Source: Candidatus Nealsonbacteria bacterium DGGOD1a (GTDB lineage: Bacteria > Patescibacteriota > Minisyncoccia > Minisyncoccales > UBA5738). Taken from it: 64,000 nucleotides of DNA. Below the pieces are notes generated by a model. The model searched no databases. It saw only the letters and a program-made list of their open reading frames with translations, and was not told where the DNA came from. The translations under genes and the position numbers were made by a program. Numbering within the stretch: the first letter of the stretch is position 1; each line of letters starts with the position of its first letter. The stretch lies in NCBI GenBank assembly GCA_022530585.1, contig CP092821.1:521525-585524 (forward strand), read 5' to 3'. Below are positions 5,983-47,123 of the stretch, in pieces.

Positions 5983-7524
5983 CGCGGCAAAAACAAAACC
6001 CCTCGCGAGAGGGGTTTTGCGCGCAAAGATTATCGCGCCAGACCGTTTTCTTTGACAAAAGCGATCTTTTCGCGCAGAGCTTTGCGGGGGTCGTTTTTGA
6101 AGAAACCGGCAATCCGTTTTCTGAACAGCCATCCCAAGCACAGGATTATGCCGGCAAAAGCGATACCCAGTCCGATCATCATATTGCCGTCAAAACCGGT
6201 TGAGATCGTGGTGGCGCCTTGAATGCCGCGGCGGTAAACATAGACCGAAGCGTTGGAATTGGCCGAATTATTGCCCGCGTAGACCGTGGCTACATTGTTC
6301 AATGTGGTTTGGCCGTAAATGAAATTGCTTTCATCCGCGATTGTGGCCGTGTAGGTGATGATCTTGGTTTGCCCGGCGAAGAATGATCCTAAATTGATGT
6401 CATTTAACGAATTGCCGCTTGCGGCATAGCCGTCAACTTGCAGGTCGCGGATATTGGTAATGCCCGCGGGAACCGCGTCGCTCACGCGCACATTTTCGGA
6501 ATTCCCCGAAACTCCGCCAACAATAATTTTGTAAGAAACAATATCCAGCGGATTGGCGGTTACGGTTCCTTGATAGCCGGTGCCGCGGGAAACATTGCTC
6601 ACGGTCTTGGTGATACTCACATTGCCGGTTTGCGTCTGTCCGCATTGTTCCGCGCGCACGATTTCCGTGTCCGTGGCGGTGCGGCTTCCTTGTTCCACCC
6701 GCACTCGCGCGGTGTAGGAACCGACATTGCGATAATCGCACAAGTTGGTCGCGGTGTAGGAAGTGTTGCTCGTGGTGATGGTTTTGTCCCAACTGCCGTC
6801 GTTTTCGCAGTCAAAATAATAGGTGTAGTCGCGGTTGTAGCTGTCACTGCCGTAATTGGAAATCGTGGCGGTCAGATCAACATCGTATAGCGGGGCGCAA
6901 TCGGATTTGGGCCGCGCGGTCAGAGCGACATTAAAATCCGTTGTCTGATGCTCGACATCGATTCGCACGCTGTCGGAATCCGAACCGCATTCGTTTCTGG
7001 CGGTCAAGGTGCAGGTATAGGTGCGGTCGTAATCATAGTCGGAGTCATAGTTGAACGGCGGACGGAATGTCGGGCGCAAAATATTGTAGTCCGACAAACT
7101 GCCGCCGGTGCAATGCCAGGAAAGGCTGTCGTAATCGCCATCCACCGAACCGTCCAAGCGCACGGATTCATCGCCGTCCACATCTTTGTCCGAACCGGCG
7201 TTGACTTCCAACGGATCGTCGCTGCCGTCCAAAGTCACGCTGTCGAAAGCGCTGGCGTTGCCGTTGTAACAAGTCAAGATGAAAGTCCTCGATCCGGTGA
7301 AATCGCCCACGGATTCCGATCCGGAAGTTAGTTTGCTTCCCGACCACGAACCCGAAGCGCTGCAAGAAGTGGCGTTGGTTGATGTCCAAGTCAAAGTCGC
7401 GTTCTTGTTGCAGGTTACCGAACCGCTGGAGCGCAAATCAACCGTGGGCGTGTTGTAGCCGCAATCTTGCGGGCAAGACGATTGGGTTTCGCCGCACTCG
7501 CAGCTGTCGTCGCCGCAAGAGTAA
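5983..7524. repeat. 1,542-bp perfect inverted repeat, left copy (3' part of paralog 1 plus stop plus terminator)
   Basis: Main frame and all shadow-frame ORFs are identical to those in 15385-16926, mirrored about coordinate sum 22909. Boundaries were checked base by base. Confidence 0.85.
5995..6018. terminator. Bidirectional intrinsic terminator hairpin aaaacccctc-gcga-gaggggtttt
   Basis: Perfect stem flanked by A-run and T-run, between convergent genes 5175-5942(+) and 6030-8231(-). Duplicated at 16891-16914. Confidence 0.75.
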
Positions 7525-8231
7525 CATTGCGCGTCGCAGGTTTGCCAGCTTTCCCAAACGGTGCATTGGCCGCTCTGGACGCAGGTTCTGCCCAAAGATC
7601 CGGAACATTCGTGCCGTCCCAAAGCGCATTCGTTCTGACAGGCGCCGATGCAAGAACCGTTGACGCAAGTCTGATTCCAGCCGCATTGAGTGATAGTGCT
7701 CCATTCTTTGCAGGAATCGCTGTCATAGTTGCCGCACTGCTTCCAGCCGTTGCCCGAACATTCCCGCTGGTCGTCGTCCGAACACTCGTCGGTGCAGGAA
7801 GAACAAAGAGGATCATTGGTATAAGCAAATACGACCAATACTTCTCCATGACCATTAGAATCATATAATTTAGAAATCACTTCTCCCTTATAAACATCAA
7901 CTTGGTTCATACATTCTGCGGTATTGATCGACACTTGCTGGGTTTGTCCGGCCGACAAGGTAATCGTTTTTGAATCATACAAAACTTGAGTATCAAGCCA
8001 GCCGGTTTGTCCGGGTTGGACAAAAAGCTTGTAAGCGGAAAAGCTTACGCGAGCGGAAGCGGTGCCTTTATTGGTGATTGAGGCGGTTGCCAAACTCCCA
8101 TGGCCGCCCGCAGACATTATCGTGGCACAGATATCACCATTGCAATTTTCCGCTTTAACATTGCTTGCCATTGTTAAAAACAAAGCAAGCGCAAAAAATA
8201 GACCGATAAATACATTTAGTGATTTTTTCAT
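6030..8231 (-). CDS. Large secreted surface protein, paralog 1 (variable head, Cys-rich modules, PKD/Ig-like repeats, DUF11-like domain, C-terminal TM anchor)
   Basis: Start placed at MKKSLNVFIGLFF (signal peptide). Has two Cys-rich modules; the second (ECALGRHECSG..CTVWESWQTC) is the one shared with paralog 2. PKD-like YTCTLTARNECGSDSDSV. DUF11-like NVSITKTVSN..VSDAVPAGIT. TM helix followed by RKR. Confidence 0.8.
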   Translation of the reverse strand: MKKSLNVFIGLFFALALFLTMASNVKAENCNGDICATIMSAGGHGSLATASITNKGTASARVSFSAYKLFVQPGQTGWLDTQVLYDSKTITLSAGQTQQVSINTAECMNQVDVYKGEVISKLYDSNGHGEVLVVFAYTNDPLCSSCTDECSDDDQRECSGNGWKQCGNYDSDSCKEWSTITQCGWNQTCVNGSCIGACQNECALGRHECSGSLGRTCVQSGQCTVWESWQTCDAQCYSCGDDSCECGETQSSCPQDCGYNTPTVDLRSSGSVTCNKNATLTWTSTNATSCSASGSWSGSKLTSGSESVGDFTGSRTFILTCYNGNASAFDSVTLDGSDDPLEVNAGSDKDVDGDESVRLDGSVDGDYDSLSWHCTGGSLSDYNILRPTFRPPFNYDSDYDYDRTYTCTLTARNECGSDSDSVRIDVEHQTTDFNVALTARPKSDCAPLYDVDLTATISNYGSDSYNRDYTYYFDCENDGSWDKTITTSNTSYTATNLCDYRNVGSYTARVRVEQGSRTATDTEIVRAEQCGQTQTGNVSITKTVSNVSRGTGYQGTVTANPLDIVSYKIIVGGVSGNSENVRVSDAVPAGITNIRDLQVDGYAASGNSLNDINLGSFFAGQTKIITYTATIADESNFIYGQTTLNNVATVYAGNNSANSNASVYVYRRGIQGATTISTGFDGNMMIGLGIAFAGIILCLGWLFRKRIAGFFKNDPRKALREKIAFVKENGLAR

Positions 8232-8310
8232 AGTTTTTTGATTATTTTTAACAATTAATGGCATTGTGTTGAAAATTTTTATAAAAGCAACAGGTTGTAT
8301 ATCTTTGATT

Positions 8311-8339
8311 ATTATAACAAGAAATAATCTATTTGTCAA
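8311..8339 (-). promoter_or_regulatory. Consensus sigma70-type promoter of paralog 1 (TTGACA-17-TATAAT)
   Basis: The minus strand reads TTGACA (8339-8334), a 17-nt spacer, then TATAAT (8316-8311). Confidence 0.7.
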
Positions 8340-8400
8340 GCGACATCAGTGTAACCCCTCACTCACCGGGGATAATCATACATACTAAAACCCGCATTTT

Positions 8401-8438
8401 GGGGTCTATCCCCTTTGTAATCAAAGGGGATAGACCCC
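8401..8438. repeat. Perfect 17-bp-stem hairpin, GGGGTCTATCCC family
   Basis: ggggtctatcccctttg-taat-caaaggggatagacccc, between paralogs 1 and 2. Confidence 0.7.
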
Positions 8439-8527
8439 TTTAAAGACATGAGAATCGGTAAGGCGAAAGCACCAAAGGAACTCCCTCGCGGGAGTTTTGG
8501 AAAAATCACTCTTATCCGATTACCGAA

Positions 8528-10582
8528 CTACATTGCCCGGTGGATTGCAGCGATCTTGTCGCGCAAGAGTTGGCGCGGGTCGCGCTTGGGATCGATGATT
8601 TGGGTTTTAACCACCCAAGCCACGCATATTAGCGCAACCAGCAATCCGATACCCAGTCCGATCATCATATTGCCGTCAAAACCGGTTGAAATCATGGTGG
8701 CCCCCATAACCGCGCGGCGGTTCACTATTACCATGGCGTTGGAATTGGCGGATTTGCCGTCAACTGTGACCGTGGCCACATTATTAAGAGTGGTTTGACC
8801 GTAGATAAAGTTGGCTTCGTTGGCCACGGTGGCCGTGTAGGCGATCGTTTTGGTTTGGCCATTGGTGATGGTTCCCAGATTGATACCCGAGACTAAATTG
8901 CCGCTTGCGGCATAGCCGTCAACTTGCAGGTCGCGAATGTTGGTAATGCCCGCGGGAACCGCGTCGGTAACCGTGACATTATTGGTCGTGCCGCCAACGC
9001 CGGTAACCGTGATGCGGTAGGCGACGATGTTTAACGGATTGGCCGATACCGTGCCTTGATAGCCGCCGCCCAAAGACAGATTGCTCACGGTCTTGGTGAT
9101 ATTCACATTGCCGGTTTGCGTCTGCCCGCATTGTTCCGCGCGCACGATTTCCGTGTCCGTGGCGGTGCGGTTTCCTTGTTCCACCCGCACTCGCGCGGTG
9201 TAGGAACCGACATTGCGATAATCGCACAAGTTGGTCGCGGTGTAGGAAGTGTTGCTCGTGGTGATGGTTTTGTCCCAACTGCCGTCGTTTTCGCAGTCAA
9301 AATAATAGGTGTAGTCGCGGTTGTAGCTGTCACTGCCGTAATTGGAAATCGTGGCGGTCAGATCAACATCGTATAGCGGGGCGCAATCGGATTTGGGCCG
9401 CGCGGTCAGAGCGACATTAAAATCCGTTGTCTGATGCTCGACATCGATTCGCACGCTGTCGGAATCCGAACCGCATTCGTTTCTGGCGGTCAAGGTGCAG
9501 GTATAGGTGCGGTCGTAATCATAGTCGGAGTCATAGTTGAACGGCGGACGGAATGTCGGGCGCAAAATATTGTAGTCCGACAAACTGCCGCCGGTGCAAT
9601 GCCAGGAAAGGCTGTCGTAATCGCCATCCACCGAACCGTCCAAGCGCACGGATTCATCGCCGTCCACATCTTTGTCCGAACCGGCGTTGACTTCCAACGG
9701 ATCGTCGCTGCCGTCCAAAGTCACGCTGTCGAAAGCGCTGGCGTTGCCGTTGTAACAAGTCAAGATGAAAGTCCTCGATCCGGTGAAATCGCCCACGGAT
9801 TCCGATCCGGAAGTTAGTTTGCTTCCCGACCACGAACCCGAAGCGCTGCAAGAAGTGGCGTTGGTTGATGTCCAAGTCAAAGTCGCGTTCTTGTTGCAGG
9901 TTACCGAACCGCTGGAGCGCAAATCAACCGTGGGCGTGTTGTAGCCGCAATCTTGCGGGCAAGACGATTGGGTTTCGCCGCACTCGCAGCTGTCGTCGCC
10001 GCAACGATAGCATTGCGCGTCGCAGGTTTGCCAGCTTTCCCAAACGGTGCATTGGCCACTTTGGACGCAGGTTCTGCCCGAAGATCCGGAACATTCGTGC
10101 TGTCCCAAAGCGCATTCGTTCTGGCACATAACACAAAGCGGGCTGTGGGTAAGTTCGCCCAAAGGAACGATTGTAGTATAATAATCGTATAAATTATCGT
10201 ATAATTTATAAACCACGCCGCCGCGAAAAACATCAACTTGAGTCATACAATCCGCAGTGTCAATTGAAATAATTCGGGTTTCGCCGGGGTTCAATATCAC
10301 AGTCTCATAATCAAGCAATGTTTGCGTATCAAGCCAGCCGGAAACTTCATATGGTTGCCGATAGACTTTATATGACGCTACGGTTGCTTGGGCGGCGCAA
10401 CTGGCGATATTTGTTACGGACACAGTTGCCGGTTGTCCGCCCCCGCCAAGGTTAATCAGCTTAGCCGTAATTCCTTGATTGCAATATTCAGCCTTAATAG
10501 GCAACGCGGTGAAAGTCGCGGCCAAAAAAATCATAAAAACAAAGGATAAGGATAAGATTAATAATTTATTAATTTTATTCAT
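8528..10582 (-). CDS. Large secreted surface protein, paralog 2 (divergent head and tail, identical central cassette)
   Basis: Start placed at MNKINKLLILSL. Central 833 bp (9172-10004) is identical to 6686-7518. Head and C-terminal DUF11-like/TM region are diverged. Confidence 0.8.
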   Translation of the reverse strand: MNKINKLLILSLSFVFMIFLAATFTALPIKAEYCNQGITAKLINLGGGGQPATVSVTNIASCAAQATVASYKVYRQPYEVSGWLDTQTLLDYETVILNPGETRIISIDTADCMTQVDVFRGGVVYKLYDNLYDYYTTIVPLGELTHSPLCVMCQNECALGQHECSGSSGRTCVQSGQCTVWESWQTCDAQCYRCGDDSCECGETQSSCPQDCGYNTPTVDLRSSGSVTCNKNATLTWTSTNATSCSASGSWSGSKLTSGSESVGDFTGSRTFILTCYNGNASAFDSVTLDGSDDPLEVNAGSDKDVDGDESVRLDGSVDGDYDSLSWHCTGGSLSDYNILRPTFRPPFNYDSDYDYDRTYTCTLTARNECGSDSDSVRIDVEHQTTDFNVALTARPKSDCAPLYDVDLTATISNYGSDSYNRDYTYYFDCENDGSWDKTITTSNTSYTATNLCDYRNVGSYTARVRVEQGNRTATDTEIVRAEQCGQTQTGNVNITKTVSNLSLGGGYQGTVSANPLNIVAYRITVTGVGGTTNNVTVTDAVPAGITNIRDLQVDGYAASGNLVSGINLGTITNGQTKTIAYTATVANEANFIYGQTTLNNVATVTVDGKSANSNAMVIVNRRAVMGATMISTGFDGNMMIGLGIGLLVALICVAWVVKTQIIDPKRDPRQLLRDKIAAIHRAM

Positions 10583-10665
10583 ATTATTTTGATTATTTTT
10601 ACGCGTTAAAATCATTGTATTGAAATTTTTCATTAAATCAATAGTCTTATTATGTTATGCAAAAA

Positions 10666-10694
10666 ATTATATCAGAAGAATAACAATTTGTCAA
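10666..10694 (-). promoter_or_regulatory. Consensus promoter of paralog 2 (TTGACA-17-TATAAT)
   Basis: Minus strand TTGACA (10694-10689), 17-nt spacer, TATAAT (10671-10666). Confidence 0.7.
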
Positions 10695-10699
10695 TATAA

Positions 10700-11310
10700 A
10701 CCAATAGGGTGTAAATGACCCTGCGGCAAGACCGCAGGGCGTTCGCAGCTACAATTCAAACAATCGTAACTGGCTCACATCTTTTGGTCTGCCTTGGTTT
10801 TGAATGTATCGCTCAATAACTTTCCTATTACCGCGTGCGCTGATCGTAGCGATATAATAGCCGTCTGTCCAGAACTCTCCACCCCAGAGTTCTTTTTTAA
10901 TTTCGGGAACTTGCCGGAACACCTCGCGCGCGGTAATGCTTTTTATTATTTTGATAACCTGGCCGCCGGAATACTTCGGCAGGAATCTTGCCAGAATATG
11001 GGCGTGGTCTTGGTCGAATCCCACATGGCTGATCTCAATGGCGTACCGTTCCATAAATCCTTTCAGGCTCTCGACAATTGCGGCAATCACCTTTTCGTTC
11101 AGTAATGCTTTGCGATATTTGACCGTAATCTGGATGTGGTAATAACATTCGGAAACATTGTGGTACCAACGCCAGATATCCCGCTTTTCTTGCTCCATAT
11201 TGGCTTATTGTAACACGGACGCGCTTTCGCGCGTGATGGTAGGGGGATATCCCCCTACCAAACCACCCCCTTAAGTTGTTCCCTGCGGCAAGACCGACAG
11301 GGTGAAAACA
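10700..11310 (-). mobile_element. IS200/IS605-family element (tnpA only), approximate limits
   Basis: tnpA is flanked by near-identical hairpins ccctgcggcaagaccgcaggg (10719-10739) and ccctgcggcaagaccgacaggg (11281-11301), plus the palindrome ggtagggggatatccccctacc (11238-11259). Confidence 0.65.
10749..11198 (-). CDS. tnpA: IS200/IS605 family Y1 (HUH) transposase TnpA
   Basis: 149 aa. YHIQITVKYRK, HAHIL (HUH-type) and WTDGYYIATI (catalytic Tyr region) motifs. Confidence 0.85.
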   Translation of the reverse strand: MEQEKRDIWRWYHNVSECYYHIQITVKYRKALLNEKVIAAIVESLKGFMERYAIEISHVGFDQDHAHILARFLPKYSGGQVIKIIKSITAREVFRQVPEIKKELWGGEFWTDGYYIATISARGNRKVIERYIQNQGRPKDVSQLRLFEL

Positions 11311-11513
11311 TTATTTAAATTATAACCCATGCTATAATAAATTAGCATTATGCTTTATTAAGACTGGCGGACACCGGTAATCGTTCGCCGGGAATACTCA
11401 AATAAGGGTTCTTCTAAGAAATATCAAGACCAAACCTCGACAAATTCGCCTTGACATCCTGTTTAAACAAAAAACTCTCCGAAATCACTTATCAAAGTTT
11501 CGCGAGAGTAAAT

Positions 11514-12242
11514 TTATTTTCCGCTGATTGTCGCTTCCACGGCAATCCGTTTCAAATCCTTGCCGGGCGGCCAACAACTGACCAGCATCAATGAATTGCC
11601 CATGACCGTGGGATCGGGTACGCCCGCTTGCGGAGCGACGACGCGCGTTTTTACCACATGGTAATAGCGGGTTTCAAAGTTATAGGTAACCACCACCATA
11701 TCTCCTTTTTTGAGATCGCCCAGTTTGCTGAAAACCCAGTCGTATTTGATTTTTGGCCAGCCCGTAGGCGCGCTATGTCCAAGAATTACGGTTTGGCCGG
11801 CTTGACCGAACGGCACGGATCCCGGATACAATACTACCCCGGAATCAAGCAAGCCGCGGATCACATCGTTATTGTTTGTTTGCGCCGTAATTATCGGCGC
11901 GGTGATATTGATCGCGGGAATAGTAATCATATCGCGCCGTTCCGTCACCGGAGTTACCCGCTGTTCCGTTGTTGTCCCGTTGTTTTTTTGTGATGATTCC
12001 AAAGGAACGGTTTTGGCTCCGGCACCGGTATTTTCAACGGTTGTTTTTTTAACCGCCATCACATATGGTTTTGGAAAATATTGCGGAAACGCGTCCGAAA
12101 CAATCTGGCGCCAAACTTCGCCATTGGCAATCCATGAGATATTGCTCCAAAACAGCGTCATCCCAACAAGAACCAGCAACAGTAAAACCGGCAGCCAAAA
12201 CTGTCCGAAGTTTTTTTTCAATTTCGTTTTATTTTTTCCCAT
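11514..12242 (-). CDS. Sortase family transpeptidase (class E/D-like)
   Basis: N-terminal TM. TVILGHS (His), LMLVSCWP (Cys) and KRIAVEA (Arg) catalytic-triad context. Confidence 0.8.
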   Translation of the reverse strand: MGKNKTKLKKNFGQFWLPVLLLLVLVGMTLFWSNISWIANGEVWRQIVSDAFPQYFPKPYVMAVKKTTVENTGAGAKTVPLESSQKNNGTTTEQRVTPVTERRDMITIPAINITAPIITAQTNNNDVIRGLLDSGVVLYPGSVPFGQAGQTVILGHSAPTGWPKIKYDWVFSKLGDLKKGDMVVVTYNFETRYYHVVKTRVVAPQAGVPDPTVMGNSLMLVSCWPPGKDLKRIAVEATISGK

Positions 12243-12257
12243 ACCGGAACATTCAAA

Positions 12258-13241
12258 TCACTGAATTAATAAATTGTGCGGAATGAGCGCGGCAATCAAA
12301 CTTTGGTCCAATAACGCGAAAATACCCATTACCGCGATAAAACCAAAAGCTTTCAACAGCAAATCCGTATGATCGATATCGGCTTTCAACGCGAAATTAA
12401 GAAGCAACAAAACAATAACGAAAATCAGCAAACCGTAAATAAGGGCTTGTAGTATAGAAAAGTATTTTTCGGCAAAAAACAATACGGCTTTGAATTCCGC
12501 GGAATTGCGATCCGGCCGGGTTTCGCTGGCGATTCCCAGAACGCCGGTTTGCTTGGTTTGCGAATTGTTTTGTCCGTCTATTTCGCCCGAATTCGCGGAA
12601 GCCGCGGTTGCCGCCGCGTTTGTTTGAGTGTTTTTGCCGGCCAGAACATTGGCTTGCTTGGTTCCAAAAAGTTGAACCACGATCGTGGCGGGATTGCCTT
12701 GAAAATTCGCTTTCAAAACCGCGATGCCGATTTCTTTGTATTTGTTGTTGATGATATTGGCCTTATGGGTCGGTGAAGCGGTCCACGCGTCTTGCACTTC
12801 GTTTGATTCAAGAAAACCGATGGCCAAATTTTCTCCCGCGTATTTATAATTGTAACCGGCTTGGCCGAACCAGTGCCAAGGGCTGACTCCGGAGGGGCTG
12901 AAATGGTTAAAATAACCGTTTTTTTCCATATCGAGAGCTTTCATATAAGCCGCGTTGTTCAGGTCGCTGTTTTCGGTCAGCGCGGCCAGATTGTGTTTGG
13001 CCCGTTCGACATTCGCCAGTTCGACAAGGGAGGTTTTGGTAATGTCGGCATAGAACTGGTTATTCGGAAACGAATAAAGAAAAAGCGCGAATCCCGCTTT
13101 GAGCGTGACCGCCGCGACAAAGAAAACAAACAGGGTTTTGCCGGTGAATATCCGGGCGCGGTAATTGTTTTCTTCACAGGGTAAAAAAAATTTTCGCGCG
13201 CCGGATTTAAAACGCGCAACAATACGCTTTAATAATGCCAT
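12258..13241 (-). CDS. CAP (SCP/PR1/YkwD-like) domain membrane protein
   Basis: GYFNHFSPSG, AGENLA and WTASPTHKANIINNKYKEIGIAV motifs. N- and C-terminal TM segments. Confidence 0.75.
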   Translation of the reverse strand: MALLKRIVARFKSGARKFFLPCEENNYRARIFTGKTLFVFFVAAVTLKAGFALFLYSFPNNQFYADITKTSLVELANVERAKHNLAALTENSDLNNAAYMKALDMEKNGYFNHFSPSGVSPWHWFGQAGYNYKYAGENLAIGFLESNEVQDAWTASPTHKANIINNKYKEIGIAVLKANFQGNPATIVVQLFGTKQANVLAGKNTQTNAAATAASANSGEIDGQNNSQTKQTGVLGIASETRPDRNSAEFKAVLFFAEKYFSILQALIYGLLIFVIVLLLLNFALKADIDHTDLLLKAFGFIAVMGIFALLDQSLIAALIPHNLLIQ

Positions 13242-13254
13242 AGGCCGTATTTAA

Positions 13255-13375
13255 TTCTTTTTATACTTCGTCAGCTTGCCACGGAGAACAAAAAGAATGA
13301 GGAGTTCTTAACAAAGCTCAAGTGATCTTGGAGAAAACATCTTCCGATTGCGGCGGGGTCAATGCCCCGACGCAA
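13255..13375 (-). repeat. Structured intergenic repeat family, copy 2
   Basis: The reverse complement aligns with 2830-2948 (ggggcattgacccc hairpin, ..ctcctcattctttttg..gcaagctgacg..aaaaagaat). Confidence 0.65.
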
Positions 13376-13493
13376 GAACCTAATTTATTGCGTTTAATTA
13401 TTATACATCCATATGCCGCTTAAGCAAAACAAAACGCGGTCTGCCACCGCGTTTTGCCAAGATGATCTCGCACAGGCTGCGAAATCGCGATAC

Positions 13494-14192
13494 CTAAAAT
13501 GTAAAAAGATTCTTGAAAAAATCACCTATCGATTGCCAGAAGCCTTTCTTCGCGGGTTCCTGGGCCTTGTTGGCTGCCGGAGCCGTTGAAACGCTCTGGC
13601 CATTTGAATCTTCCAAAGAAGATTGTCCCTCGTAATTTGTTTGTACGCTCCCTAAATTCGCGGTTGCGGTTTGGTCGGCGGCTTGTTTCGCGGCAAGTTC
13701 CTGGTTGAGTTCATTGATCTGCTGCTTTATTTTGGCGATTTGCGCCTCGACCGTTCCGTTGCCGATATTGCTTGCTTTCGATTGCGTTTCCACCCGGATA
13801 TCTGTTCCCGCATACTTTTGTTGATTCGTTATCTGATAATCCAAATCCGCGGTTTTTTGCCGGATATCGCGCAAAATCACGAATACCTGAACTTCAATTC
13901 TCAAACGCGCCGTCTCCGCGGCGATAATATCTGTCTGAGATTTGATGTAATCCAGCTGGCTTTGCGTTAGCGTATGCGATACTGGCACAGGCGCCGTCGC
14001 TAATGGCTGGATTCGCGCGCTCTGCAATTGAATCGCGAGGTCATTTACTTTCTGCTGTATTTGCCGAATCAGCACGGAAGCGTCATTGATCGATACGGAT
14101 GACGGATTTCCCGCCGCTGACACATTTCCTCCCAAGAGCAAGCCCATGGCCGCGATCAGCAACAATGAGAATGTTTTAGCTTTTGTTTGCAT
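13494..14192 (-). CDS. Secreted coiled-coil protein, hypothetical
   Basis: Signal peptide MQTKAKTFSLLLIAAMGLLLGGNVSAAG, then Q/A/I-rich heptad-like sequence. No family recognised. Confidence 0.55.
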   Translation of the reverse strand: MQTKAKTFSLLLIAAMGLLLGGNVSAAGNPSSVSINDASVLIRQIQQKVNDLAIQLQSARIQPLATAPVPVSHTLTQSQLDYIKSQTDIIAAETARLRIEVQVFVILRDIRQKTADLDYQITNQQKYAGTDIRVETQSKASNIGNGTVEAQIAKIKQQINELNQELAAKQAADQTATANLGSVQTNYEGQSSLEDSNGQSVSTAPAANKAQEPAKKGFWQSIGDFFKNLFTF

Positions 14193-14396
14193 ATTATCTT
14201 TAAGAATTGGTATTGCGCTTGGCACACATTATTTTTTGTCGACCGGCCGCGATCAATCGCGGTTAATCAATAATAGCAGATTATGTCCGATATATGCAAC
14301 AGTAACCGTTTTTACACCGATATCAAAAGATTTTTGAGATAGTTCCAATACGGCATTAAAAACCAGAAAAAAATATTACAACATCAAGACCTTTAT

Positions 14397-14456
14397 GAAA
14401 AAAGCTGTTCTAGTACCCGGTTAGGGAGGAAAAATTAACCGGGCACCAGAACAGCT
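14397..14456 (-). terminator. Strong orphan intrinsic terminator on the minus strand (21-bp stem, loop AUUUUUCCUCCC, U-run)
   Basis: Arms 14403-14423 and 14436-14456. The two A.C mismatches on plus become G.U on the minus strand. Followed on minus by TTTTT. Confidence 0.65.
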
Positions 14457-14546
14457 CTCCAAGAATTTGGTCTTAACTATACATTTGTCCTAGGACACAA
14501 TATCAATAATAAGTTTTATTCCATTTCCATAGCTTTGTCAATGGTA

Positions 14547-14575
14547 TTGACAAATTATTATTCTTCTGATATAAT
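14547..14575 (+). promoter_or_regulatory. Consensus promoter of paralog 3 (TTGACA-17-TATAAT)
   Basis: TTGACA 14547-14552, 17-nt spacer, TATAAT 14570-14575. The downstream leader is near-identical to that of paralog 2. Confidence 0.7.
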
Positions 14576-14656
14576 TTGGAATAATATAATTAAGACTATT
14601 GATTTAATGAAAAATTTCAATACAATGATTTTAACGCGTAAAAATAATCAAAAAAT

Positions 14657-16879
14657 ATGAATAAATTGTATCTTGCCTGTTTGGGTGTTTGCGTTTCTTT
14701 GGCGTTCTTTGCGGTGATGCCGCAAACAATATCCGCGGAAAATTGCAAGAACAATGTTTGCGCCACACTGATCACCACGGGCGGCAACGGTCAGCCGGCT
14801 TCGGCCAAGATCGAAAATAAAGGCTCGGTCACGACAGAAGTCGCTTTTTATACCTACAAAGTCTTTGTCCAGCCGTTCAATGAAGGATGGGGAGACCAAG
14901 AATTGTACCAATACAAGATAGTTACTTTGGCGCCCGGAGAGAAGAAAACCGTTTCCATCAACAACCCTGATTGTATGGCCCAATTCGATGTTCATGTCGG
15001 TTATCCGGAACAAAGCGAGCAAACCATTCTCATCGGTGATTTTAATAACAATACCAATCTATGTATCAGAATTCCCGTGACTGTTTCGGGAAGAGTGACC
15101 AAATGCGGCCAAGGAGTTTCGGGCGCGGCTATAGAAACTTGCACCGGAAGCACAGTTTATACTGATTCCAACGGTTATTGGTCAATTTCAACATTTAAAG
15201 GCAAAGGGTATTGCGCGCGCGTTTCGCTTGCAGGTGTGAAAGGAATCAACAATAATTCCTGCAATCCAAATAATGTCAGTTATGAATGGCAAATTGCCGG
15301 TGAAAACAGATTTATCGGATGTAATGCCTCCGAATGGAATAAGTACGACAGAAGTTCGGACAGCAATGTTGATTTTGTGGTAGATTACTCTTGCGGCGAC
15401 GACAGCTGCGAGTGCGGCGAAACCCAATCGTCTTGCCCGCAAGATTGCGGCTACAACACGCCCACGGTTGATTTGCGCTCCAGCGGTTCGGTAACCTGCA
15501 ACAAGAACGCGACTTTGACTTGGACATCAACCAACGCCACTTCTTGCAGCGCTTCGGGTTCGTGGTCGGGAAGCAAACTAACTTCCGGATCGGAATCCGT
15601 GGGCGATTTCACCGGATCGAGGACTTTCATCTTGACTTGTTACAACGGCAACGCCAGCGCTTTCGACAGCGTGACTTTGGACGGCAGCGACGATCCGTTG
15701 GAAGTCAACGCCGGTTCGGACAAAGATGTGGACGGCGATGAATCCGTGCGCTTGGACGGTTCGGTGGATGGCGATTACGACAGCCTTTCCTGGCATTGCA
15801 CCGGCGGCAGTTTGTCGGACTACAATATTTTGCGCCCGACATTCCGTCCGCCGTTCAACTATGACTCCGACTATGATTACGACCGCACCTATACCTGCAC
15901 CTTGACCGCCAGAAACGAATGCGGTTCGGATTCCGACAGCGTGCGAATCGATGTCGAGCATCAGACAACGGATTTTAATGTCGCTCTGACCGCGCGGCCC
16001 AAATCCGATTGCGCCCCGCTATACGATGTTGATCTGACCGCCACGATTTCCAATTACGGCAGTGACAGCTACAACCGCGACTACACCTATTATTTTGACT
16101 GCGAAAACGACGGCAGTTGGGACAAAACCATCACCACGAGCAACACTTCCTACACCGCGACCAACTTGTGCGATTATCGCAATGTCGGTTCCTACACCGC
16201 GCGAGTGCGGGTGGAACAAGGAAGCCGCACCGCCACGGACACGGAAATCGTGCGCGCGGAACAATGCGGACAGACGCAAACCGGCAATGTGAGTATCACC
16301 AAGACCGTGAGCAATGTTTCCCGCGGCACCGGCTATCAAGGAACCGTAACCGCCAATCCGCTGGATATTGTTTCTTACAAAATTATTGTTGGCGGAGTTT
16401 CGGGGAATTCCGAAAATGTGCGCGTGAGCGACGCGGTTCCCGCGGGCATTACCAATATCCGCGACCTGCAAGTTGACGGCTATGCCGCAAGCGGCAATTC
16501 GTTAAATGACATCAATTTAGGATCATTCTTCGCCGGGCAAACCAAGATCATCACCTACACGGCCACAATCGCGGATGAAAGCAATTTCATTTACGGCCAA
16601 ACCACATTGAACAATGTAGCCACGGTCTACGCGGGCAATAATTCGGCCAATTCCAACGCTTCGGTCTATGTTTACCGCCGCGGCATTCAAGGCGCCACCA
16701 CGATCTCAACCGGTTTTGACGGCAATATGATGATCGGACTGGGTATCGCTTTTGCCGGCATAATCCTGTGCTTGGGATGGCTGTTCAGAAAACGGATTGC
16801 CGGTTTCTTCAAAAACGACCCCCGCAAAGCTCTGCGCGAAAAGATCGCTTTTGTCAAAGAAAACGGTCTGGCGCGATAA
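14657..16879 (+). CDS. Large secreted surface protein, paralog 3 (own head with CarboxypepD_reg-like insert; tail identical to paralog 1)
   Basis: Signal peptide MNKLYLACLGVCVSLAFFAV. Head contains VTVSGRVTKCGQGVSGAAIE..TDSNGYWSI. From SCGDDSCECGETQ to the end it is identical to paralog 1. Confidence 0.8.
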   Translation: MNKLYLACLGVCVSLAFFAVMPQTISAENCKNNVCATLITTGGNGQPASAKIENKGSVTTEVAFYTYKVFVQPFNEGWGDQELYQYKIVTLAPGEKKTVSINNPDCMAQFDVHVGYPEQSEQTILIGDFNNNTNLCIRIPVTVSGRVTKCGQGVSGAAIETCTGSTVYTDSNGYWSISTFKGKGYCARVSLAGVKGINNNSCNPNNVSYEWQIAGENRFIGCNASEWNKYDRSSDSNVDFVVDYSCGDDSCECGETQSSCPQDCGYNTPTVDLRSSGSVTCNKNATLTWTSTNATSCSASGSWSGSKLTSGSESVGDFTGSRTFILTCYNGNASAFDSVTLDGSDDPLEVNAGSDKDVDGDESVRLDGSVDGDYDSLSWHCTGGSLSDYNILRPTFRPPFNYDSDYDYDRTYTCTLTARNECGSDSDSVRIDVEHQTTDFNVALTARPKSDCAPLYDVDLTATISNYGSDSYNRDYTYYFDCENDGSWDKTITTSNTSYTATNLCDYRNVGSYTARVRVEQGSRTATDTEIVRAEQCGQTQTGNVSITKTVSNVSRGTGYQGTVTANPLDIVSYKIIVGGVSGNSENVRVSDAVPAGITNIRDLQVDGYAASGNSLNDINLGSFFAGQTKIITYTATIADESNFIYGQTTLNNVATVYAGNNSANSNASVYVYRRGIQGATTISTGFDGNMMIGLGIAFAGIILCLGWLFRKRIAGFFKNDPRKALREKIAFVKENGLAR

Positions 16880-16926
16880 TCTTTGCGCGCAAAACCCCTC
16901 TCGCGAGGGGTTTTGTTTTTGCCGCG
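15385..16926. repeat. 1,542-bp perfect inverted repeat, right copy
   Basis: Reverse complement of 5983-7524, including the stop codon and terminator hairpin (16891-16914). Confidence 0.85.
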
Positions 16927-16971: not shown

Positions 16972-17043
16972 GGACGATTAGCTCAGCGGTAGAGCGTTCC
17001 GTTCACATCGGAGAGGCCACAGGTTCGAGCCCTGTATCGTCCA
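16972..17043 (+). tRNA. tRNA-Val (anticodon CAC)
   Basis: Manual cloverleaf: acceptor GGACGAT/ATCGTCC, D arm GCTC..GAGC, anticodon stem TTCCG/CGGAG with loop TTCACAT, T arm ACAGG-TTCGAGC-CCTGT. CCA is not encoded. Confidence 0.85.
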
Positions 17044-17060
17044 CAAACTTTAAATTATAT

Positions 17061-28607: not shown

Positions 28608-29654
28608 ATGGACACAATAGTAATCTTATTATTCATTGCCGTGATCGGGGTGCTGGGGGTACAGACATGGGTTTTGATGCGGAAGCGGAAAGAGGACGAA
28701 CTTCCCAAGAATGATGCGGGGATGGCAATGTTGCAACAGCAGTTAAATCAAGTGAGTCAGACGCTGGACTCAAAGCTGACCGAATCCAACCGCGCGATGC
28801 AGGAACAGTTCGGGCAGAGCTTTAAAGTTATCCGCGATGTCACGCAAAAGCTCACCGAACTGGACAGCACCAACAAGCAGGTGGTGGGATTCGCGCAACA
28901 ATTGCAATCGCTGGAAAATATTCTCAAAAACCCCAAACAGCGGGGAATCCTGGGCGAATACTATTTGGAAACAGTGCTGAAAAATGTTTTGCCGCCGCAA
29001 TCGTTTCAAATGCAATATAAGTTCAAAAACGGCGAAATCGTGGACGCGGCGGTGTTCGTGAAAGATAAAATCATTCCCATTGATTCCAAATTTTCGCTGG
29101 AAAATTACAATAAGATCGTTAACGAAAAAGATGAAACCGCCAAAATCGCGCTGGAGAAGATTTTCAAGGCTGATTTGAAATTGCGCATTGATGAAACTTC
29201 AAAATACATCCGCCCCGACGAAGGCACGATGGAATTCGCGCTGATGTTTATCCCTTCGGAAGGCATCTATTATGATTTGCTCATCAATGAAGTGGGATCG
29301 GTCAAGGTTAACACCCGCGACTTGATTGAATACGCGTTTGCCCAAAAGCGGGTGATTATCGTCTCTCCCACCAATTTTTTGGCCTATCTGCAAACCGTTC
29401 TGCAAGGCCTGCGCGCCCTGCAAATCGAAGAATCCGCCAAAGAAATCCGCCAGCGCGTGGAAATGCTGGGCAAACATTTGTGCGCCTATAACGAGTATTT
29501 ACAGCGGCTGGGCGGCCATTTGGCAACTTCGGTGAACACCTACAACGCCGCCGCCAAAGAATTCGGCAAAATCGACAAAGATGTGCTAAAAATCACGGGC
29601 GCCGACCGCGACAAATTGGAAACCGGACAGATAGATAAACCGAATTTGGAATAA
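28608..29654 (+). CDS. rmuC: DNA recombination protein RmuC
   Basis: N-terminal TM, long coiled coil, RGILGEYYLETVL and C-terminal nuclease-like domain typical of RmuC. Confidence 0.85.
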   Translation: MDTIVILLFIAVIGVLGVQTWVLMRKRKEDELPKNDAGMAMLQQQLNQVSQTLDSKLTESNRAMQEQFGQSFKVIRDVTQKLTELDSTNKQVVGFAQQLQSLENILKNPKQRGILGEYYLETVLKNVLPPQSFQMQYKFKNGEIVDAAVFVKDKIIPIDSKFSLENYNKIVNEKDETAKIALEKIFKADLKLRIDETSKYIRPDEGTMEFALMFIPSEGIYYDLLINEVGSVKVNTRDLIEYAFAQKRVIIVSPTNFLAYLQTVLQGLRALQIEESAKEIRQRVEMLGKHLCAYNEYLQRLGGHLATSVNTYNAAAKEFGKIDKDVLKITGADRDKLETGQIDKPNLE

Positions 29655-34607: not shown

Positions 34608-35213
34608 TTAAGCGATTTGTTTCCTGCCTTCCAGCGCCGAACTTAAGGTTTCCTCGTCGGCGTATTCCAGTTCGCCGCCCATTGGCAAGCCCACGCCTAA
34701 TTTGGTGATTCTTTTGCCTAAAGGTTTTAGGATCTTTTCAAGATAGAGGATCGTAGCGTAGCCTTCGGAAGTCGGGTTTATGGCTAGAATAATTTCCTTG
34801 ATCGATTGGCTGGTTTTGACGCGGTTTTCCAGTTCGGCGATGCGCAATCCGGACAGGCTTTCTTTGTGTAAGGTCGAAACCGTACCGCCCAAAACAAAAT
34901 ATAAACCTTTATAGATTTTTGTTTTTTCTATAGTTGCCAGATCGGTTTCGCCAGCCACCACGCAAAGCTGGGTTTTATCGCGTTTGACATTCGCGCAAAC
35001 CGGACACAGCGTCTTTTCCGATTCATAGATATTGAAGCACATCGGGCAGGTTTTGATGTTCACCTTCATATCCGTAATGGCTTGGATAAGTTCTTTCACC
35101 TTGGCATTATCCAGCCGCATCAAATAAAAAACAAACCGCGCCGCCGTTCGCGGCCCAACAGTGGGAAATTTACTAAACCTATCGATTAGTTTTTGAATGG
35201 AAGGGGAATACAT
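34608..35213 (-). CDS. recR: Recombination protein RecR
   Basis: HhH N-terminus, C4 zinc finger CPMCFN..CPVC, Toprim domain. Confidence 0.95.
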   Translation of the reverse strand: MYSPSIQKLIDRFSKFPTVGPRTAARFVFYLMRLDNAKVKELIQAITDMKVNIKTCPMCFNIYESEKTLCPVCANVKRDKTQLCVVAGETDLATIEKTKIYKGLYFVLGGTVSTLHKESLSGLRIAELENRVKTSQSIKEIILAINPTSEGYATILYLEKILKPLGKRITKLGVGLPMGGELEYADEETLSSALEGRKQIA

Positions 35214-37303: not shown

Positions 37304-38948
<1,645 letters not shown>

Positions 38949-39207
38949 ACATTTTTGAGTGTCGGCTTTTGTCGAGGGACGAGAATTCTTCTCTTGACAC
39001 CAAGACGCTGATCGGTTCGTCTCTAAGAAACCGATTTCGAAAGTCCAAGGCGACTTCAAGCAATTCTTTTATTCGTAGTGGAAATCAAAGCACCCGCAGG
39101 GGTGTTTTTGCGCTAACAAAAATTTGGCAACAGACCCATTATGTCCCCGATGATTATGTGTTTTTTGCGGTCACGGAATTTTATAATTTTTTTATACAAA
39201 ACCGATA

Positions 39208-39245
39208 TTCTATAAATTTAGCTATGGCTAAAAATATAGAATAAA
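39208..39245. repeat. 38-nt palindromic element (copy 2)
   Basis: One mismatch relative to 2780-2817. Confidence 0.7.
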
Positions 39246-39440
39246 TTTTATTGACGGAATACGAGGGTTTGGTAGGATACAAATAGAAATCAAAATTCAA
39301 AATCAAATTATAAAACCAAAAATAAAATTGATGAAAAAATAAATTTAAAGGCCGCGGTTTGAAAAAAATACAAGCAATATGTTTCATATCAATCATGCGC
39401 CAGTCAAAACTAAACGAATCCGAGTTCAAAGATTAATGAT

Positions 39441-40016
39441 ATGATAAAAAAGGTTCCAAAAAATAAAAAACGGATTAACAAAACCGAGATGCCGGTGAAA
39501 ATTCCAAAAAAAGTGGAAGGTTTTTTGAGTAAAACGGGGATTAAATGTGAAACAATAACTCATCGCACGGTCTATACCGCGTTTGACAAGGCGGCGACTT
39601 TAAAAATAAAGACAGGCGCGATCGCCAAAGTTTTGGTGATTAAAATTGACAGGGAATTGGCAATGGCGGTTATCGGCGGAGACAGGAATTTGGATATGGA
39701 TAAGCTGGCAAAACTCGCCAAGGCAAAGAAAATTGATTTTGCCAAAGAAAAAATTATTGCCGAAACTTTTAAAGGTATTGACCCGGGAGCGATCCCGCCC
39801 TTTGCCGGTTTGTGGCAAATACGCGTTTTTTGCGACAAAAAATTTCTGGAATCGCCAAAAATAATAATATCCGCCGGAAGTTATGAAGCGTCGCTGATAA
39901 TCACCCCCGCCGCATTTAAAAAAACCAACCCCGAAATGGCAATTGGCAATTTTTCGGCCGCCAAACCCAAATTAAAAAAGCCGATTAAGGCCGCCTTGAA
40001 AAAAAGAAGGAAATAG
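39441..40016 (+). CDS. YbaK/EbsC-type aminoacyl-tRNA deacylase domain protein with Lys-rich termini
   Basis: Core TVYTAFDKAATL..IAKVLVIK..LAMAVIGGDRNLDMDKLAKL..GAIPPFAG..ISAGS. Confidence 0.65.
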   Translation: MIKKVPKNKKRINKTEMPVKIPKKVEGFLSKTGIKCETITHRTVYTAFDKAATLKIKTGAIAKVLVIKIDRELAMAVIGGDRNLDMDKLAKLAKAKKIDFAKEKIIAETFKGIDPGAIPPFAGLWQIRVFCDKKFLESPKIIISAGSYEASLIITPAAFKKTNPEMAIGNFSAAKPKLKKPIKAALKKRRK

Positions 40017-40035
40017 GGTATAAATAGTTTGTTGC

Positions 40036-40107
40036 GGGCGCGTAGTTAAGTGGTATAACGCCGTCCTGATAAGACGGAGGCCGAAGGTCCGATTCCTTCC
40101 GCGCCCA
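40036..40107 (+). tRNA. tRNA-Ile (anticodon GAT)
   Basis: Acceptor GGGCGCG/CGCGCCC, anticodon stem CCGTC/GACGG with loop CTGATAA, T arm GAAGG-TCCGATT-CCTTC. Confidence 0.85.
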
Positions 40108-40157
40108 CATTAAAAAATCCCGTTTCCGGGATTTTTGCTTTAAAAGGTTTTTACGAT

Positions 40158-41456: not shown

Positions 41457-41602
41457 AAATTTATGATTATTACGCCATTCTATCAAACCCCGCCGTTAAA
41501 GCAATTGCAATCGGGCTATTTTTTGCTATTGTATATTTGTTGAATTTGCTTCATTTGAGTTCGTGTTTAAACTCATCGCTTGCGACTCATCAACCATTTC
41601 CC

Positions 41603-41678
41603 GGGCCTTTAGCTCAGCCGGCAGAGCGCCTCATTTGCAATGAGGAGGTCGGCGGTTCGAATCCGCCAAGGTCCACCA
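41603..41678 (+). tRNA. tRNA-Ala (anticodon TGC), CCA encoded
   Basis: Acceptor GGGCCTT/AAGGTCC with G3:U70, anticodon loop TTTGCAA, T arm GGCGG-TTCGAAT-CCGCC. Confidence 0.9.
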
Positions 41679-45648: not shown

Positions 45649-45652
45649 ATTT

Positions 45653-47119: not shown

Positions 47120-47123
47120 ATTT

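Follow-up and report, generated by a model that had tools for sequence, protein, structure and literature searches.

The three surface-protein genes at this locus share long stretches of DNA without a single difference, and these stretches directly adjoin parts that have diverged to saturation. This raises the question of what keeps the shared parts identical, and whether the layout serves to switch surface proteins. The window analysed, a stretch of 64,000 nt, is part of the closed genome of Ca. Nealsonbacteria DGGOD1a, a CPR bacterium living as an epibiont of Methanothrix. To our knowledge, how CPR/Patescibacteria epibionts recognise their hosts and attach to them is largely unknown. Few CPR-archaeon partnerships are maintained in the laboratory, and that of DGGOD1a and Methanothrix is among them. 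The paper describing the DGGOD1a genome points to type IV pili only in this respect and does not mention the three genes, here termed g1, g2 and g3. Our literature search yielded no earlier description of them and no paper joining Patescibacteria, gene conversion and adhesins. The locus has probably been shaped by concerted evolution, in which adhesin paralogs convert one another by homologous recombination and at times undergo inversion or deletion, without a dedicated switching device.

The genes g1 (6030..8231, minus strand; UMX48405.1, 733 aa), g2 (8528..10582, minus strand; UMX48406.1, 684 aa) and g3 (14657..16879, plus strand; UMX48411.1, 740 aa) encode secreted, C-terminally anchored paralogs, in agreement with a preliminary description of this DNA, which assigned it to a CPR-type organism. 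All three products exhibit the order signal peptide, variable N-terminal head, three Ig/PKD-like domains, DUF11-like domain and TM anchor. Head1 of g1 consists of an N-terminal beta-sandwich module and two Cys-rich modules, head2 of g2 of the N-module and one Cys-rich module, and head3 of g3 of the N-module and a weakly CarboxypepD_reg-like insert, without a Cys-rich module. The tail is of type 1 in g1 and g3 and of type 2 in g2. Gene calls vary: g1 appears at JGI as a 744-aa form starting at 8264, and g2 has also been called as a 701-aa form starting at 10633.

On the window proteins themselves CarboxypepD_reg (E=0.0019, 19 bits, cutoff 32.3), DUF11 (22.8, cutoff 24.6), PKD (20.1, cutoff 23.5) and TIGR01451 (20.9, cutoff 24) all remain sub-threshold; homologues carry PF01345 and PF00801, as well as PF22352 and PF18911. 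In the AF2 model four beta-sandwich domains follow the head, and the insert in the g3 head has a pLDDT <30. Foldseek against the PDB returned generic strings of Ig-like domains only and no specific adhesin match. The C-terminus of the family is marked by the invariant motif GATxxSTG, which is followed by a single TM helix and basic residues. This motif is not LPXTG, and the cytoplasmic tail after the helix is unusually long (about 30 aa). Elsewhere in the window there is a canonical LPNTG protein with its own sortase. The g1 to g3 products are probably stalk-like surface proteins serving as adhesins in host attachment, and they may be processed by a sortase.

Each of the three genes is a full-length ORF with its own start codon and lies behind a promoter-like site matching the extended -10 consensus at 12 of 12 positions and carrying the TG as well (TTGACA-17-TATAAT in g1). 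These sites are found at 8311..8339 (g1, minus strand), 10666..10694 (g2, minus strand) and 14547..14575 (g3, plus strand). The genes flank a conserved unk-CAP-sortase block on the minus strand. Its first gene, unk (13494..14192), encodes a secreted coiled-coil-like protein of 232 aa and is followed by the genes for a CAP/YkwD-domain membrane protein (12258..13241) and a sortase (11514..12242), which passes the general model TIGR01076 and matches no defined class. In more than 20 related loci the sortase, together with unk and CAP, is syntenic with the adhesin family; a further look-up with the sortase brought no new arrangement. Between the sortase gene and the g2 promoter lies an IS200/IS605-family element (10710..11318, minus strand; Y1 transposase at 10749-11198), of which at least nine further copies, 99.3-100% identical, occur in contigs of the same organism. 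The DGG0 hybrid assembly breaks at this element.

The most extended repeat of the locus is a perfect inverted repeat of 1,542 nt. Its left arm (5983..7524, minus strand), comprising core, tail 1, stop codon and terminator of g1, is the exact reverse complement (0 mismatches) of its right arm (15385..16926, plus strand), which comprises the same parts of g3. The repeat extends 47 nt beyond the stop codon and takes in the terminator hairpin (5999-6012 and 16897-16910, respectively). The gene for tRNA-Val(CAC) (16972..17044, plus strand) begins 45 nt past the right repeat end and provides a unique flank marker. Within the repeat a core of 833 nt, encoding about three Ig/PKD-like domains, is identical in g1 (6686..7518, minus strand), g2 (9172..10004, minus strand) and g3 (15391..16223, plus strand). 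Between g1 and g2, which form direct repeats with an offset of 2,486 nt, the identity ends exactly at the core boundaries. The preliminary description had given the coordinates of the 1,542-nt arms and of the 833-nt core exactly, together with the continuation of the identity through stop codon and hairpin. Absent from its list was a second inverted repeat, a block of 63 nt that is 100% identical upstream of g2 (10587..10649, minus strand) and of g3 (14591..14653, plus strand) and covers their 5'UTR/promoter-proximal region. Together, the 63-nt block and the 833-nt core bracket the head as a cassette. Directly upstream of the core, g1 and g2 are 83% identical over 142 nt (7519-7660), rising to about 92% nearest the core, and g3 is unrelated to both in this stretch. 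The tail of g2 is a mosaic in which blocks of 94-98% identity alternate with blocks of 55-70%.

In the core, none of the 188 synonymous sites differs among the gene copies, compared to a dS >2 (saturated) in the N-terminal module adjoining the core and a dS of 0.71 between the two tail types. This contrast rules out chance. The sharp boundaries between identical and diverged sequence noted earlier are real and mark recombination or gene conversion. A tract of near-zero dS abutting paralogous sequence of high dS is what gene conversion leaves behind, and the mosaic expected from it is present as well, with 1,542 nt common to g1 and g3, 833 nt to all three genes, 63 nt to g2 and g3, the 83% linker of g1 and g2, and the patchy tail 2. 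Purifying selection alone was rejected as the cause of the identity because the synonymous sites are identical, too. A diversity-generating retroelement was likewise rejected: the substitution spectrum between the g1 and g2 tails is unbiased, and there is no RT among the scanned ORFs. Of the general recombination machinery, only genes for RecR and RmuC were seen in the window. GC skew gave too weak a signal in 2-kb windows for dating the inversion.

Tract ends and patches differ between close genomes. In the strain L018, which is about 99% identical to DGGOD1a and whose assembly appears to be long-read (Flye-style contig name, single-base indels), the copies h1 and h3 share no more than 96% identity across 1,815 nt and differ by about 0.8% in core and tail. 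Here, h1 has 7 private core SNPs, h2 equals h3 over 811 nt, and at the core edges diagnostic sites look exchanged between g1 and g2. The g3 gene of L018 retains a Cys-rich segment of 285 nt, 72-90% like that of g1. The right arm of the DGGOD1a repeat begins exactly where L018 has this additional segment, so that the start of the g1/g3 tract is the exact junction of a 285-nt deletion relative to L018. In a further strain of about 99% identity, strain 2 (L091/L092), 3 SNPs of g3 fall within the initial 21 nt of the core, indicating a different tract end. The core haplotype common to two strains could reflect exchange between strains in addition to conversion within a genome. The consensus arrangement is unchanged in the 2016 and 2017 assemblies and in L018. 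Scans of genome and metagenome contigs gave hits in other species only, with at most 72% aa identity; these were informative on synteny, and no further strains of the DGGOD1a species turned up.

We also detected contigs with recombinant junctions. Contig L084 consists of head1, the repeat and the tRNA-Val flank, which matches a flip between the 1,542-nt arms. Contig L085, from a later assembly of a metagenome apparently derived from the same culture, stops a short way beyond the repeat end and does not cross the repeat. The Logan contig ERR12035938 runs from the SIMPL flank to position 7518 without a break at 5983. Contig L098, encoding protein P0128, joins a g3-type upstream flank to head2, core, tail 1 and the SIMPL flank. 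The first of its crossovers falls within the 63-nt block and thus in a repeat shorter than the k of 127 used by the assembler. The tail bears 3 private SNPs; the left flank is strain-1-like (single SNP) and the right flank strain-2-like. Contig L094 of the OR re-assembly links the unk flank to head3, which is the arrangement of the window. L084 and L098 could be assembler chimeras across the repeats; we infer that they represent real molecules.

These contigs bear on the rearrangements that had been predicted from the repeats. The fusion of head2 to tail 1 next to the g1 flank is present as P0128, with the reservation that its contig could be a chimera. Of the combinations expected from three heads and two tails, head2-tail1 is the sole chimera found; neither head1-tail2 nor head3-tail2 proteins occur among the homologues or cluster members. 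We saw no inversion between the g2 and g3 cores, which would flip 10005-15390; the variant junction that did occur falls within the 63-nt promoter block. The most recombinogenic pair, g1 and g3, yields a flip that changes no protein because their tails are identical.

How far the zero divergence can be taken at face value depends on the assembly. Gaps in the DGGOD1a genome were closed in silico with mapped ABySS contigs, and SNPs were edited to the clonal majority with a 90% cutoff. In addition, de Bruijn and hybrid assemblies reuse repeat edges, so that a few copy-specific SNPs were possibly erased, and assembly together with majority polishing could account for some of the apparent lack of divergence. 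Short-read contigs, moreover, cannot resolve perfect repeats of 833-1,542 nt. One might go further and assume that only the genes and their similarity are real, zero divergence and arrangement having been manufactured and the variant contigs being mis-joins. The difference of about 0.8% between h1 and h3 of L018 and the break of L085 where L084 continues would fit this assumption, but we regard it as distinctly improbable. In at least 8 samples and with 4 assemblers, contigs terminate precisely k nt within the repeat ends (k = 31, 91, 127 and 141 at 5983, 16926 and 15385), which requires exact identity at these ends. The JGI contig Ga0310376_1000310 runs with 100% identity from SIMPL through g1, g2, the IS element and the sortase block and on into head3, and the apparently long-read assembly of L018 gives an identical h2/h3 core of 811 nt in unchanged gene order. 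Even a divergence of 1% would contrast with the saturated heads. If the identity is real, it might alternatively stem from one recent segmental duplication of a core-plus-tail fragment without ongoing exchange, to which we assign a very small probability. That the g1/g3 identity takes in stop codon and terminator is in line with a duplication. However, one event does not explain three different pairwise boundaries (1,542 nt, 833 nt in all three genes, and 63 nt upstream of g2 and g3), the additional patches of the tail 2 mosaic, and tract ends, swapped patches and modules that vary between 99%-identical strains.

The remaining alternative concerns function. Promoter block and stalk might be kept under selection as a cassette shuffler that works without a recombinase, RecA swapping heads, linkers, tails and orientation at appreciable frequency. 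Perfect homology does lie on either side of the heads, with the 63-nt block at one end and the 833-nt core at the other. Independent assemblies contain both the flip junction and the fusion of head2 to tail 1 that had been predicted, and the crossover of L098, falling in a repeat of less than k, is an argument for real molecules. The organism lives attached to its host as an obligate epibiont, and its genome authors mention lower-abundance strains in the same culture. In such a case a clonal epibiont population would always mix tip/anchor combinations for attachment to the archaeal host, and the 1,542-nt flip would toggle the sortase block between divergent and co-directional orientation relative to the adhesins. 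Nevertheless, we consider a selected shuffler unlikely. Three complete genes, each with its own 12/12 promoter, leave no expression-site logic, and the largest repeat pair yields a protein-neutral flip. There are two tail types only and a single chimera, which, like the other variant contig, may be an assembly product. The majority arrangement is constant across the 2016/2017 assemblies and the related strain, and relatives with 1-2 tandem paralogs (81-89% identity) lack a conserved inverted architecture. The earlier analogy with a shufflon or antigenic-variation locus thus appears overstated in view of complete promoter-bearing ORFs, a stable consensus arrangement and the lack of silent cassettes. 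A true shufflon or other site-specific invertible system was rejected as no tyrosine or serine recombinase was found among the scanned ORFs, and the repeats are gene and promoter homology of 63-1,542 nt, not short sites bounding promoterless segments. The Pfam screen covered annotated ORFs from 3 to 20 kb and, between 28.6 and 62.1 kb, all ORFs with 150 aa or more; it detected only the IS200 Y1 transposase, an IS30-like HTH ORF and a DDE transposase, in accordance with the earlier statement that no invertase is present. A silent-cassette system of the pilS/vls/MgPar type was rejected as well, the locus having three full-length promoter-bearing ORFs and no promoterless partial donors.

Concerted evolution by gene conversion would account for the locus as follows. 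The stalk DNA, which in g1 and g3 means the whole 3' half including the terminator, would be repeatedly overwritten from copy to copy by general RecA-type recombination. Being non-reciprocal, this gene conversion would result in concerted evolution of the stalk. The heads, presumably ancient and highly diverged, would remain different because conversion tracts end at module borders. Since the copies form long repeats, perfect in both direct and inverted orientation, some events may be resolved reciprocally. Such events would invert the DNA that lies between the 1,542-nt arms or between the 63-nt promoter blocks, produce deletions or fusions when g1 recombines with g2, or lead to the loss of a module. 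By such recombination close strains would come to carry differing combinations of head, linker, tail and flank. Copying among the three genes looks ongoing. The variation would then be a by-product of homology together with selection on a surface-protein family.

The wider family is consistent with a derived arrangement in DGGOD1a. Relatives exhibit the synteny SIMPL-unk-CAP-sortase-(1-2 tandem paralogs)-ProCA on a single strand throughout, indicating that the block is inverted in DGGOD1a; recombination of the 1,542-nt arms would flip it back into the ancestral gene order. In other species, tandem paralogs are 81-89% identical at the nt level across 0.9-1.7 kb of core and tail. Relatives conserve the tail 2 type, with 88% aa identity to a UBA5738 MAG compared to 66% for tail 1. 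The unk-CAP-sortase-adhesin block found across Paceibacterales, with its hypervariable tips and homogenised stalk, makes the locus a candidate attachment module. Many family members are located at contig ends, which calls for caution among users of MAGs, and in the closed genome short reads by themselves do not suffice to establish how about 8 kb are ordered and oriented. Public PacBio and time-series Illumina data from this culture lineage make the hypothesis inexpensive to test. If flip or shuffle frequencies turned out to be high, this would be the first surface-variation locus based on homologous recombination described in CPR.

Among known systems, babA/babB/babC and sabA/sabB of Helicobacter pylori resemble the locus in being complete, separately promoted adhesin paralogs in which near-identical segments adjoin diverged ligand-binding parts. 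There, RecA-type intragenomic conversion and chimera formation move the variable parts, and strains differ in the chimera present at a given locus. The bab genes, however, are dispersed, encode outer-membrane beta-barrels and vary in the middle, their 5' and 3' ends being conserved, whereas the DGGOD1a genes are clustered, with two inverted, and encode a Gram-positive-like, TM- or sortase-anchored Ig stalk, of which the N-terminal tip is variable and stalk, anchor and terminator are homogenised. The ligA and ligB genes of Leptospira likewise encode surface proteins of Ig-like repeats that are identical over a long run and then diverge sharply, a pattern attributed to partial duplication and recombination. 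In the Lig proteins identity covers the N-terminal side and divergence the C-terminal side, and there are two copies without inverted-repeat geometry.

Neisseria pilE/pilS, Borrelia vlsE, Mycoplasma genitalium MgPar and Treponema tprK also depend on homologous recombination without a site-specific recombinase. In these systems conserved flanks guide the transfer of variable segments into one expression site from promoterless partial donors; DGGOD1a, in contrast, has three full genes with perfect promoters, and the conserved segment is the one that is copied. The Rci shufflon of R64 and the pneumococcal SpnIII hsdS/ivr locus share with DGGOD1a the inverted paralogous gene halves whose inversion swaps modules. 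Such loci rely on short, specific sites and, as a rule, on a tyrosine recombinase of their own encoded next to them, unlike DGGOD1a, where no recombinase was found and the repeats of 63-1,542 nt are ordinary coding and promoter homology. Finally, perfect inverted repeats at the kb scale, as in plastid genomes or in rrn- and IS-mediated inversions, are expected to give two orientation isomers through general recombination. Contig L084 fits the second isomer, which restores the ancestral gene order. What distinguishes DGGOD1a from these flip-flop systems is that the arms are halves of adhesin genes, so that each flip exchanges the head at each chromosomal position.

The three surface-protein paralogs g1 (6030-8231, minus strand), g2 (8528-10582, minus strand) and g3 (14657-16879, plus strand), whose products are UMX48405.1, UMX48406.1 and UMX48411.1 in the 1,159,797-bp record of Candidatus Nealsonbacteria bacterium DGGOD1a, combine diverged N-terminal heads with partly identical stalk and anchor regions. 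Positions 5983-7524 and 15385-16926 are perfect reverse complements of 1,542 nt, including stop codon and terminator hairpin. A stalk-coding core of 833 nt is identical in all three genes (6686-7518, 9172-10004 and the reverse complement of 15391-16223), ending at exactly these bases, and the direct repeats of g1 and g2 are offset by 2,486 nt. The repeat coordinates of the preliminary description were re-derived exactly. Beyond its list, we detected a 63-nt inverted repeat (100% identity) directly upstream of g2 and g3 (10587-10649 and 14591-14653), a Cys-rich linker of 142 nt preceding the core, in which g1 and g2 share 83% identity (rising to about 92% nearest the core) and to which g3 is unrelated, and a mosaic g2 tail, where blocks of 94-98% alternate with blocks of 55-70%. 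In the core, 0 of 188 synonymous sites differ, whereas synonymous divergence is 0.71 between tail 1 (g1/g3 type) and tail 2 (g2 type) and saturated (>2) in the homologous N-terminal module. The pattern is accounted for neither by chance nor by purifying selection.

DGGOD1a belongs to the Paceibacterales (GTDB genus UBA5738) and is an epibiont of Methanothrix (10.1101/2022.04.20.488981) in the methanogenic benzene-degrading culture OR/DGG-B (10.1101/2022.04.20.488981; PMC10190668). Its genome contains 18 perfect-repeat pairs above 400 bp, mostly transposases (10.1101/2022.04.20.488981); the genome authors' account holds no discussion of g1, g2 or g3.

The interval between g2 and g3 contains an IS200-family element, a sortase, a CAP/YkwD-domain membrane protein and a secreted 232-aa protein (unk, 13494-14192, minus strand). 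The IS200/IS605-family element (10710-11318) encodes only a 149-aa Y1 transposase, without TnpB. At least nine other copies with 99.3-100% identity are present in DGGOD1a contigs, and the element looks recently active. It is located about 15 nt upstream of the -35 box of the g2 promoter, where the DGG0 hybrid assembly (3300028923), consisting of the same pieces as the window, is broken. In line with the preliminary description, which had stated that no site-specific invertase is present, a scan of the annotated ORFs at 3-20 kb and of the ORFs of at least 150 aa at 28.6-62.1 kb revealed neither a tyrosine nor a serine recombinase.

More than 20 related loci carry, on one strand, the g1-side flank SIMPL, unk, CAP, sortase, one or two tandem adhesin paralogs and ProCA. 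This shared order indicates that the DGGOD1a arrangement, with three paralogs and an inverted unk-to-g1 block, is derived. A flip at the 1,542-nt arms would yield SIMPL / g3 (minus) / unk, CAP, sortase, IS, g2, g1 (plus) / tRNA-Val, ProCA, which equals the ancestral order with one extra copy, inverted. In other species, core and tail of tandem paralogs are 81-89% identical at the nucleotide level over 0.9-1.7 kb, the heads being unrelated; high stalk/tail similarity is thus a family trait, with DGGOD1a as the extreme case. Many family members are located at contig ends.

The order of the window was found in other assemblies, too. A JGI contig (3300028916, Ga0310376_1000310) matches with 100% identity from SIMPL through g1, g2, the IS and the sortase block into head3, the head of g3. 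The same gene order is present in an about 99% identical strain (L018, ENA ERZ25039527 contig_57586), whose single-base indels and Flye-style contig name point to assembly from long reads. In at least eight samples, contigs reach precisely k nt into the repeats before ending (k = 31, 91, 127 and 141 at 5983 and 16926; k = 77, 91 and 141 at 15385), which shows that the repeat boundaries are real and common to the samples. A 4,421-nt contig (Logan ERR12035938, k=31) comprises SIMPL, tail 1 and core, ends at the equivalent of 7518 and shows no break at 5983; in this sample the tail may be unduplicated or the copies different.

Contigs of recombinant type exist as well. L084 (IMG 2020627003) joins head1 (7935-7525) and the 1,542-nt repeat to the tRNA-Val/ProCA flank, which is the structure of the flip isomer. 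Its BDM contig prefix, together with how the sister assembly 2061766000 is described, suggests that L084 is from an early assembly of the September 2009 sample of the culture. The sister assembly (same sample, PE data) does not cross the repeat end but has its break immediately outside it. Contig L098 (MEGAHIT k127, SRR636597), encoding protein P0128, combines a g3-type upstream flank (14155-14653), head2, core, tail 1 and the SIMPL flank. Its head2 is 100% identical to that of g2, and its tail 1 contains three private SNPs. The first crossover lies inside the 63-nt block, the second in or near the core; since the block is shorter than k127, the first junction should need real spanning reads. 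The right flank is strain-2-like (99.96% to contig L005), the left one corresponds to strain 1 at the single informative site. P0128 thus represents the predicted head2-tail 1 fusion, but as a candidate only, the flanks being of mixed strain type. A re-assembly of OR shows the unk flank joined to head3. Among homologues and cluster members, no protein combining head1 or head3 with tail 2 is on record. Two k=31 contigs (L095, L097) have their ends at 14620, 30 nt inside the promoter block of 63 nt, where a merge point would place them. L096 (Logan SRR21915714) runs through the entire block to 14653 instead, stopping where head2 and head3 diverge. Both heads could follow the unk flank in this sample, or the difference could stem from graph cleaning.

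Closely related strains differ in their tracts. In L018, the counterparts of g1 and g3 (h1 and h3) show 96% identity over 1,815 nt. Its core contains seven private substitutions in h1, h2 equals h3 over 811 nt, and, compared with DGGOD1a, the diagnostic sites on either side of the core read as if exchanged between g1 and g2. L018 h3 retains a 285-nt Cys-rich linker of two modules, 72-90% like that of g1 (283 nt as assembled, two single-base gaps resembling sequencing errors), and the identical tract of g1 and g3 in DGGOD1a starts exactly at the corresponding deletion junction. In strain 2 (L091/L092), head3 is directly joined to the core as in the window; three SNPs within the first 21 nt of the g3 core place the tract end differently from DGGOD1a. 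The L018 sortase gene appears degenerate, being split into ORFs of 63 and 137 aa (region matching 11500-12500), with 41 mismatches and 34 gap positions in 500 nt next to nearly identical neighbouring genes. Either it is degenerating or replaced, or there is a local assembly problem.

The AlphaFold model of g3 (mean pLDDT 65) comprises a signal peptide, an N-terminal beta-sandwich (residues 28-129), three Ig-like sandwiches forming the core (270-535), a DUF11-like sandwich (544-674), a TM helix (690-717) and a short cytoplasmic helix. The g3-specific insert has no confident model and a sub-threshold Pfam match to CarboxypepD_reg. Foldseek matches of the model were strings of Ig-like domains only, and Pfam/NCBIfam matches of the three proteins (PKD, DUF11/TIGR01451) were sub-threshold; PF01345, PF00801, PF22352 and PF18911 are present in homologues across Patescibacteria. 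The number of linker/stalk modules varies widely across the family (L030, L034, L027; other Patescibacteria MAGs), with about 20 tandem Cys-rich modules (72-77% nucleotide identity) in L030 and extra PKD-like units in some members. Directly before the TM helix, G-A-T-x-x-S-T-G is invariant in 22/22 aligned homologues (in g1-g3 at the C-termini, e.g. 16690-16780). The motif differs from LPXTG, matches no NCBIfam sorting-signal model and is followed by a long cytoplasmic tail; sortase synteny is nevertheless conserved, and GATxxSTG may accordingly be a non-LPXTG signal for putative sortase processing. A promoter-like site TTGACA-17-TGnTATAAT (12/12) precedes each of the three genes, and no further perfect match occurs in the 11-kb region. 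With such sites, all three genes look independently and strongly expressed.

Elsewhere in the window (52683-55464), a second surface-protein/sortase pair encodes a 694-aa protein with Ice_binding-like, SpaA_2 prealbumin-like and DUF7507 domains, ending in a canonical LPNTG, a hydrophobic segment and RRK, directly followed by the sortase gene (54841-55464). The 16S rRNA gene (region 37305-41678) spans 1,644 nt compared to a 1,533-position model, probably due to an insertion, and no 23S follows. Protein genes separate tRNA-Ile and tRNA-Ala from the 16S gene and from each other; between these RNA genes lie a YbaK-like editing domain gene (39441-40016) and an MFS transporter (40158-41486, opposite strand). 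A DDE transposase (42041-43153) precedes a low-GC region (43378-51871; GC 0.33-0.39) of strongly positive GC skew, encoding an N6/N4 DNA methylase, an AAA_21/AbiEii-like ATPase, a ResIII helicase-endonuclease and a HerA-like ATPase, which looks like an acquired restriction or defence island. RmuC (28608-29654) and RecR (34608-35213) are encoded near the locus. The RmuC protein of E. coli restricts inversion between short inverted repeats, and both genes are relevant background for recombination at g1-g3.

We consider it probable that stalk and anchor evolve in concert: homologous gene conversion, presumably RecA-dependent, would repeatedly overwrite them among three expressed putative adhesin paralogs, with tracts halting at module borders. 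The same homology would occasionally give reciprocal outcomes: inversion between the 1,542-nt arms or between the 63-nt blocks, deletion or fusion involving g1 and g2, and loss of linker. Such products would set closely related strains apart. A single duplication without ongoing exchange, leaving the multiple boundaries and the strain differences unexplained, is hardly credible. The published closure of the genome, done in silico and with SNPs set to the clonal majority at a 90% cutoff, can wipe out small differences between repeat copies, as can graph assemblers generally. These methods permit an assembly or polishing artefact; we regard it as improbable, since the k-exact breakpoints in many samples and the independent assembly of another strain favour real near-identity and gene order.

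The preliminary description had proposed a shuffling locus analogous to a shufflon or antigenic-variation system. This proposal is partly supported: recombination is real and has produced at least candidate head/tail/flank recombinants, but these do not establish a programmed variation device. Shuffling under selection would fit the perfect homology on both sides of the heads and the predicted chimera, which exists as a contig. It is unlikely, though, as all copies are full-length with their own promoter, the main flip is protein-neutral, a single chimera was found and the majority arrangement is stable. Within the literature searched, no locus of this kind had been noted in a CPR epibiont before. 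It offers a concrete candidate for an attachment module, and public long reads from the living culture lineage make the hypothesis testable.

The locus has neither the short sites nor the promoterless segments of shufflons, and the ORFs scanned include no recombinase. Silent-cassette antigenic variation relies on a single expression site, which g1-g3 lack; as for DGRs, there is no A-bias, and the ORFs scanned include no RT. In contrast, the proposed mechanism resembles the conversion between bab/sab paralogs in H. pylori and the case of Leptospira ligA/ligB, and the flip at the 1,542-nt arms is reminiscent of the isomerisation known from large inverted repeats.
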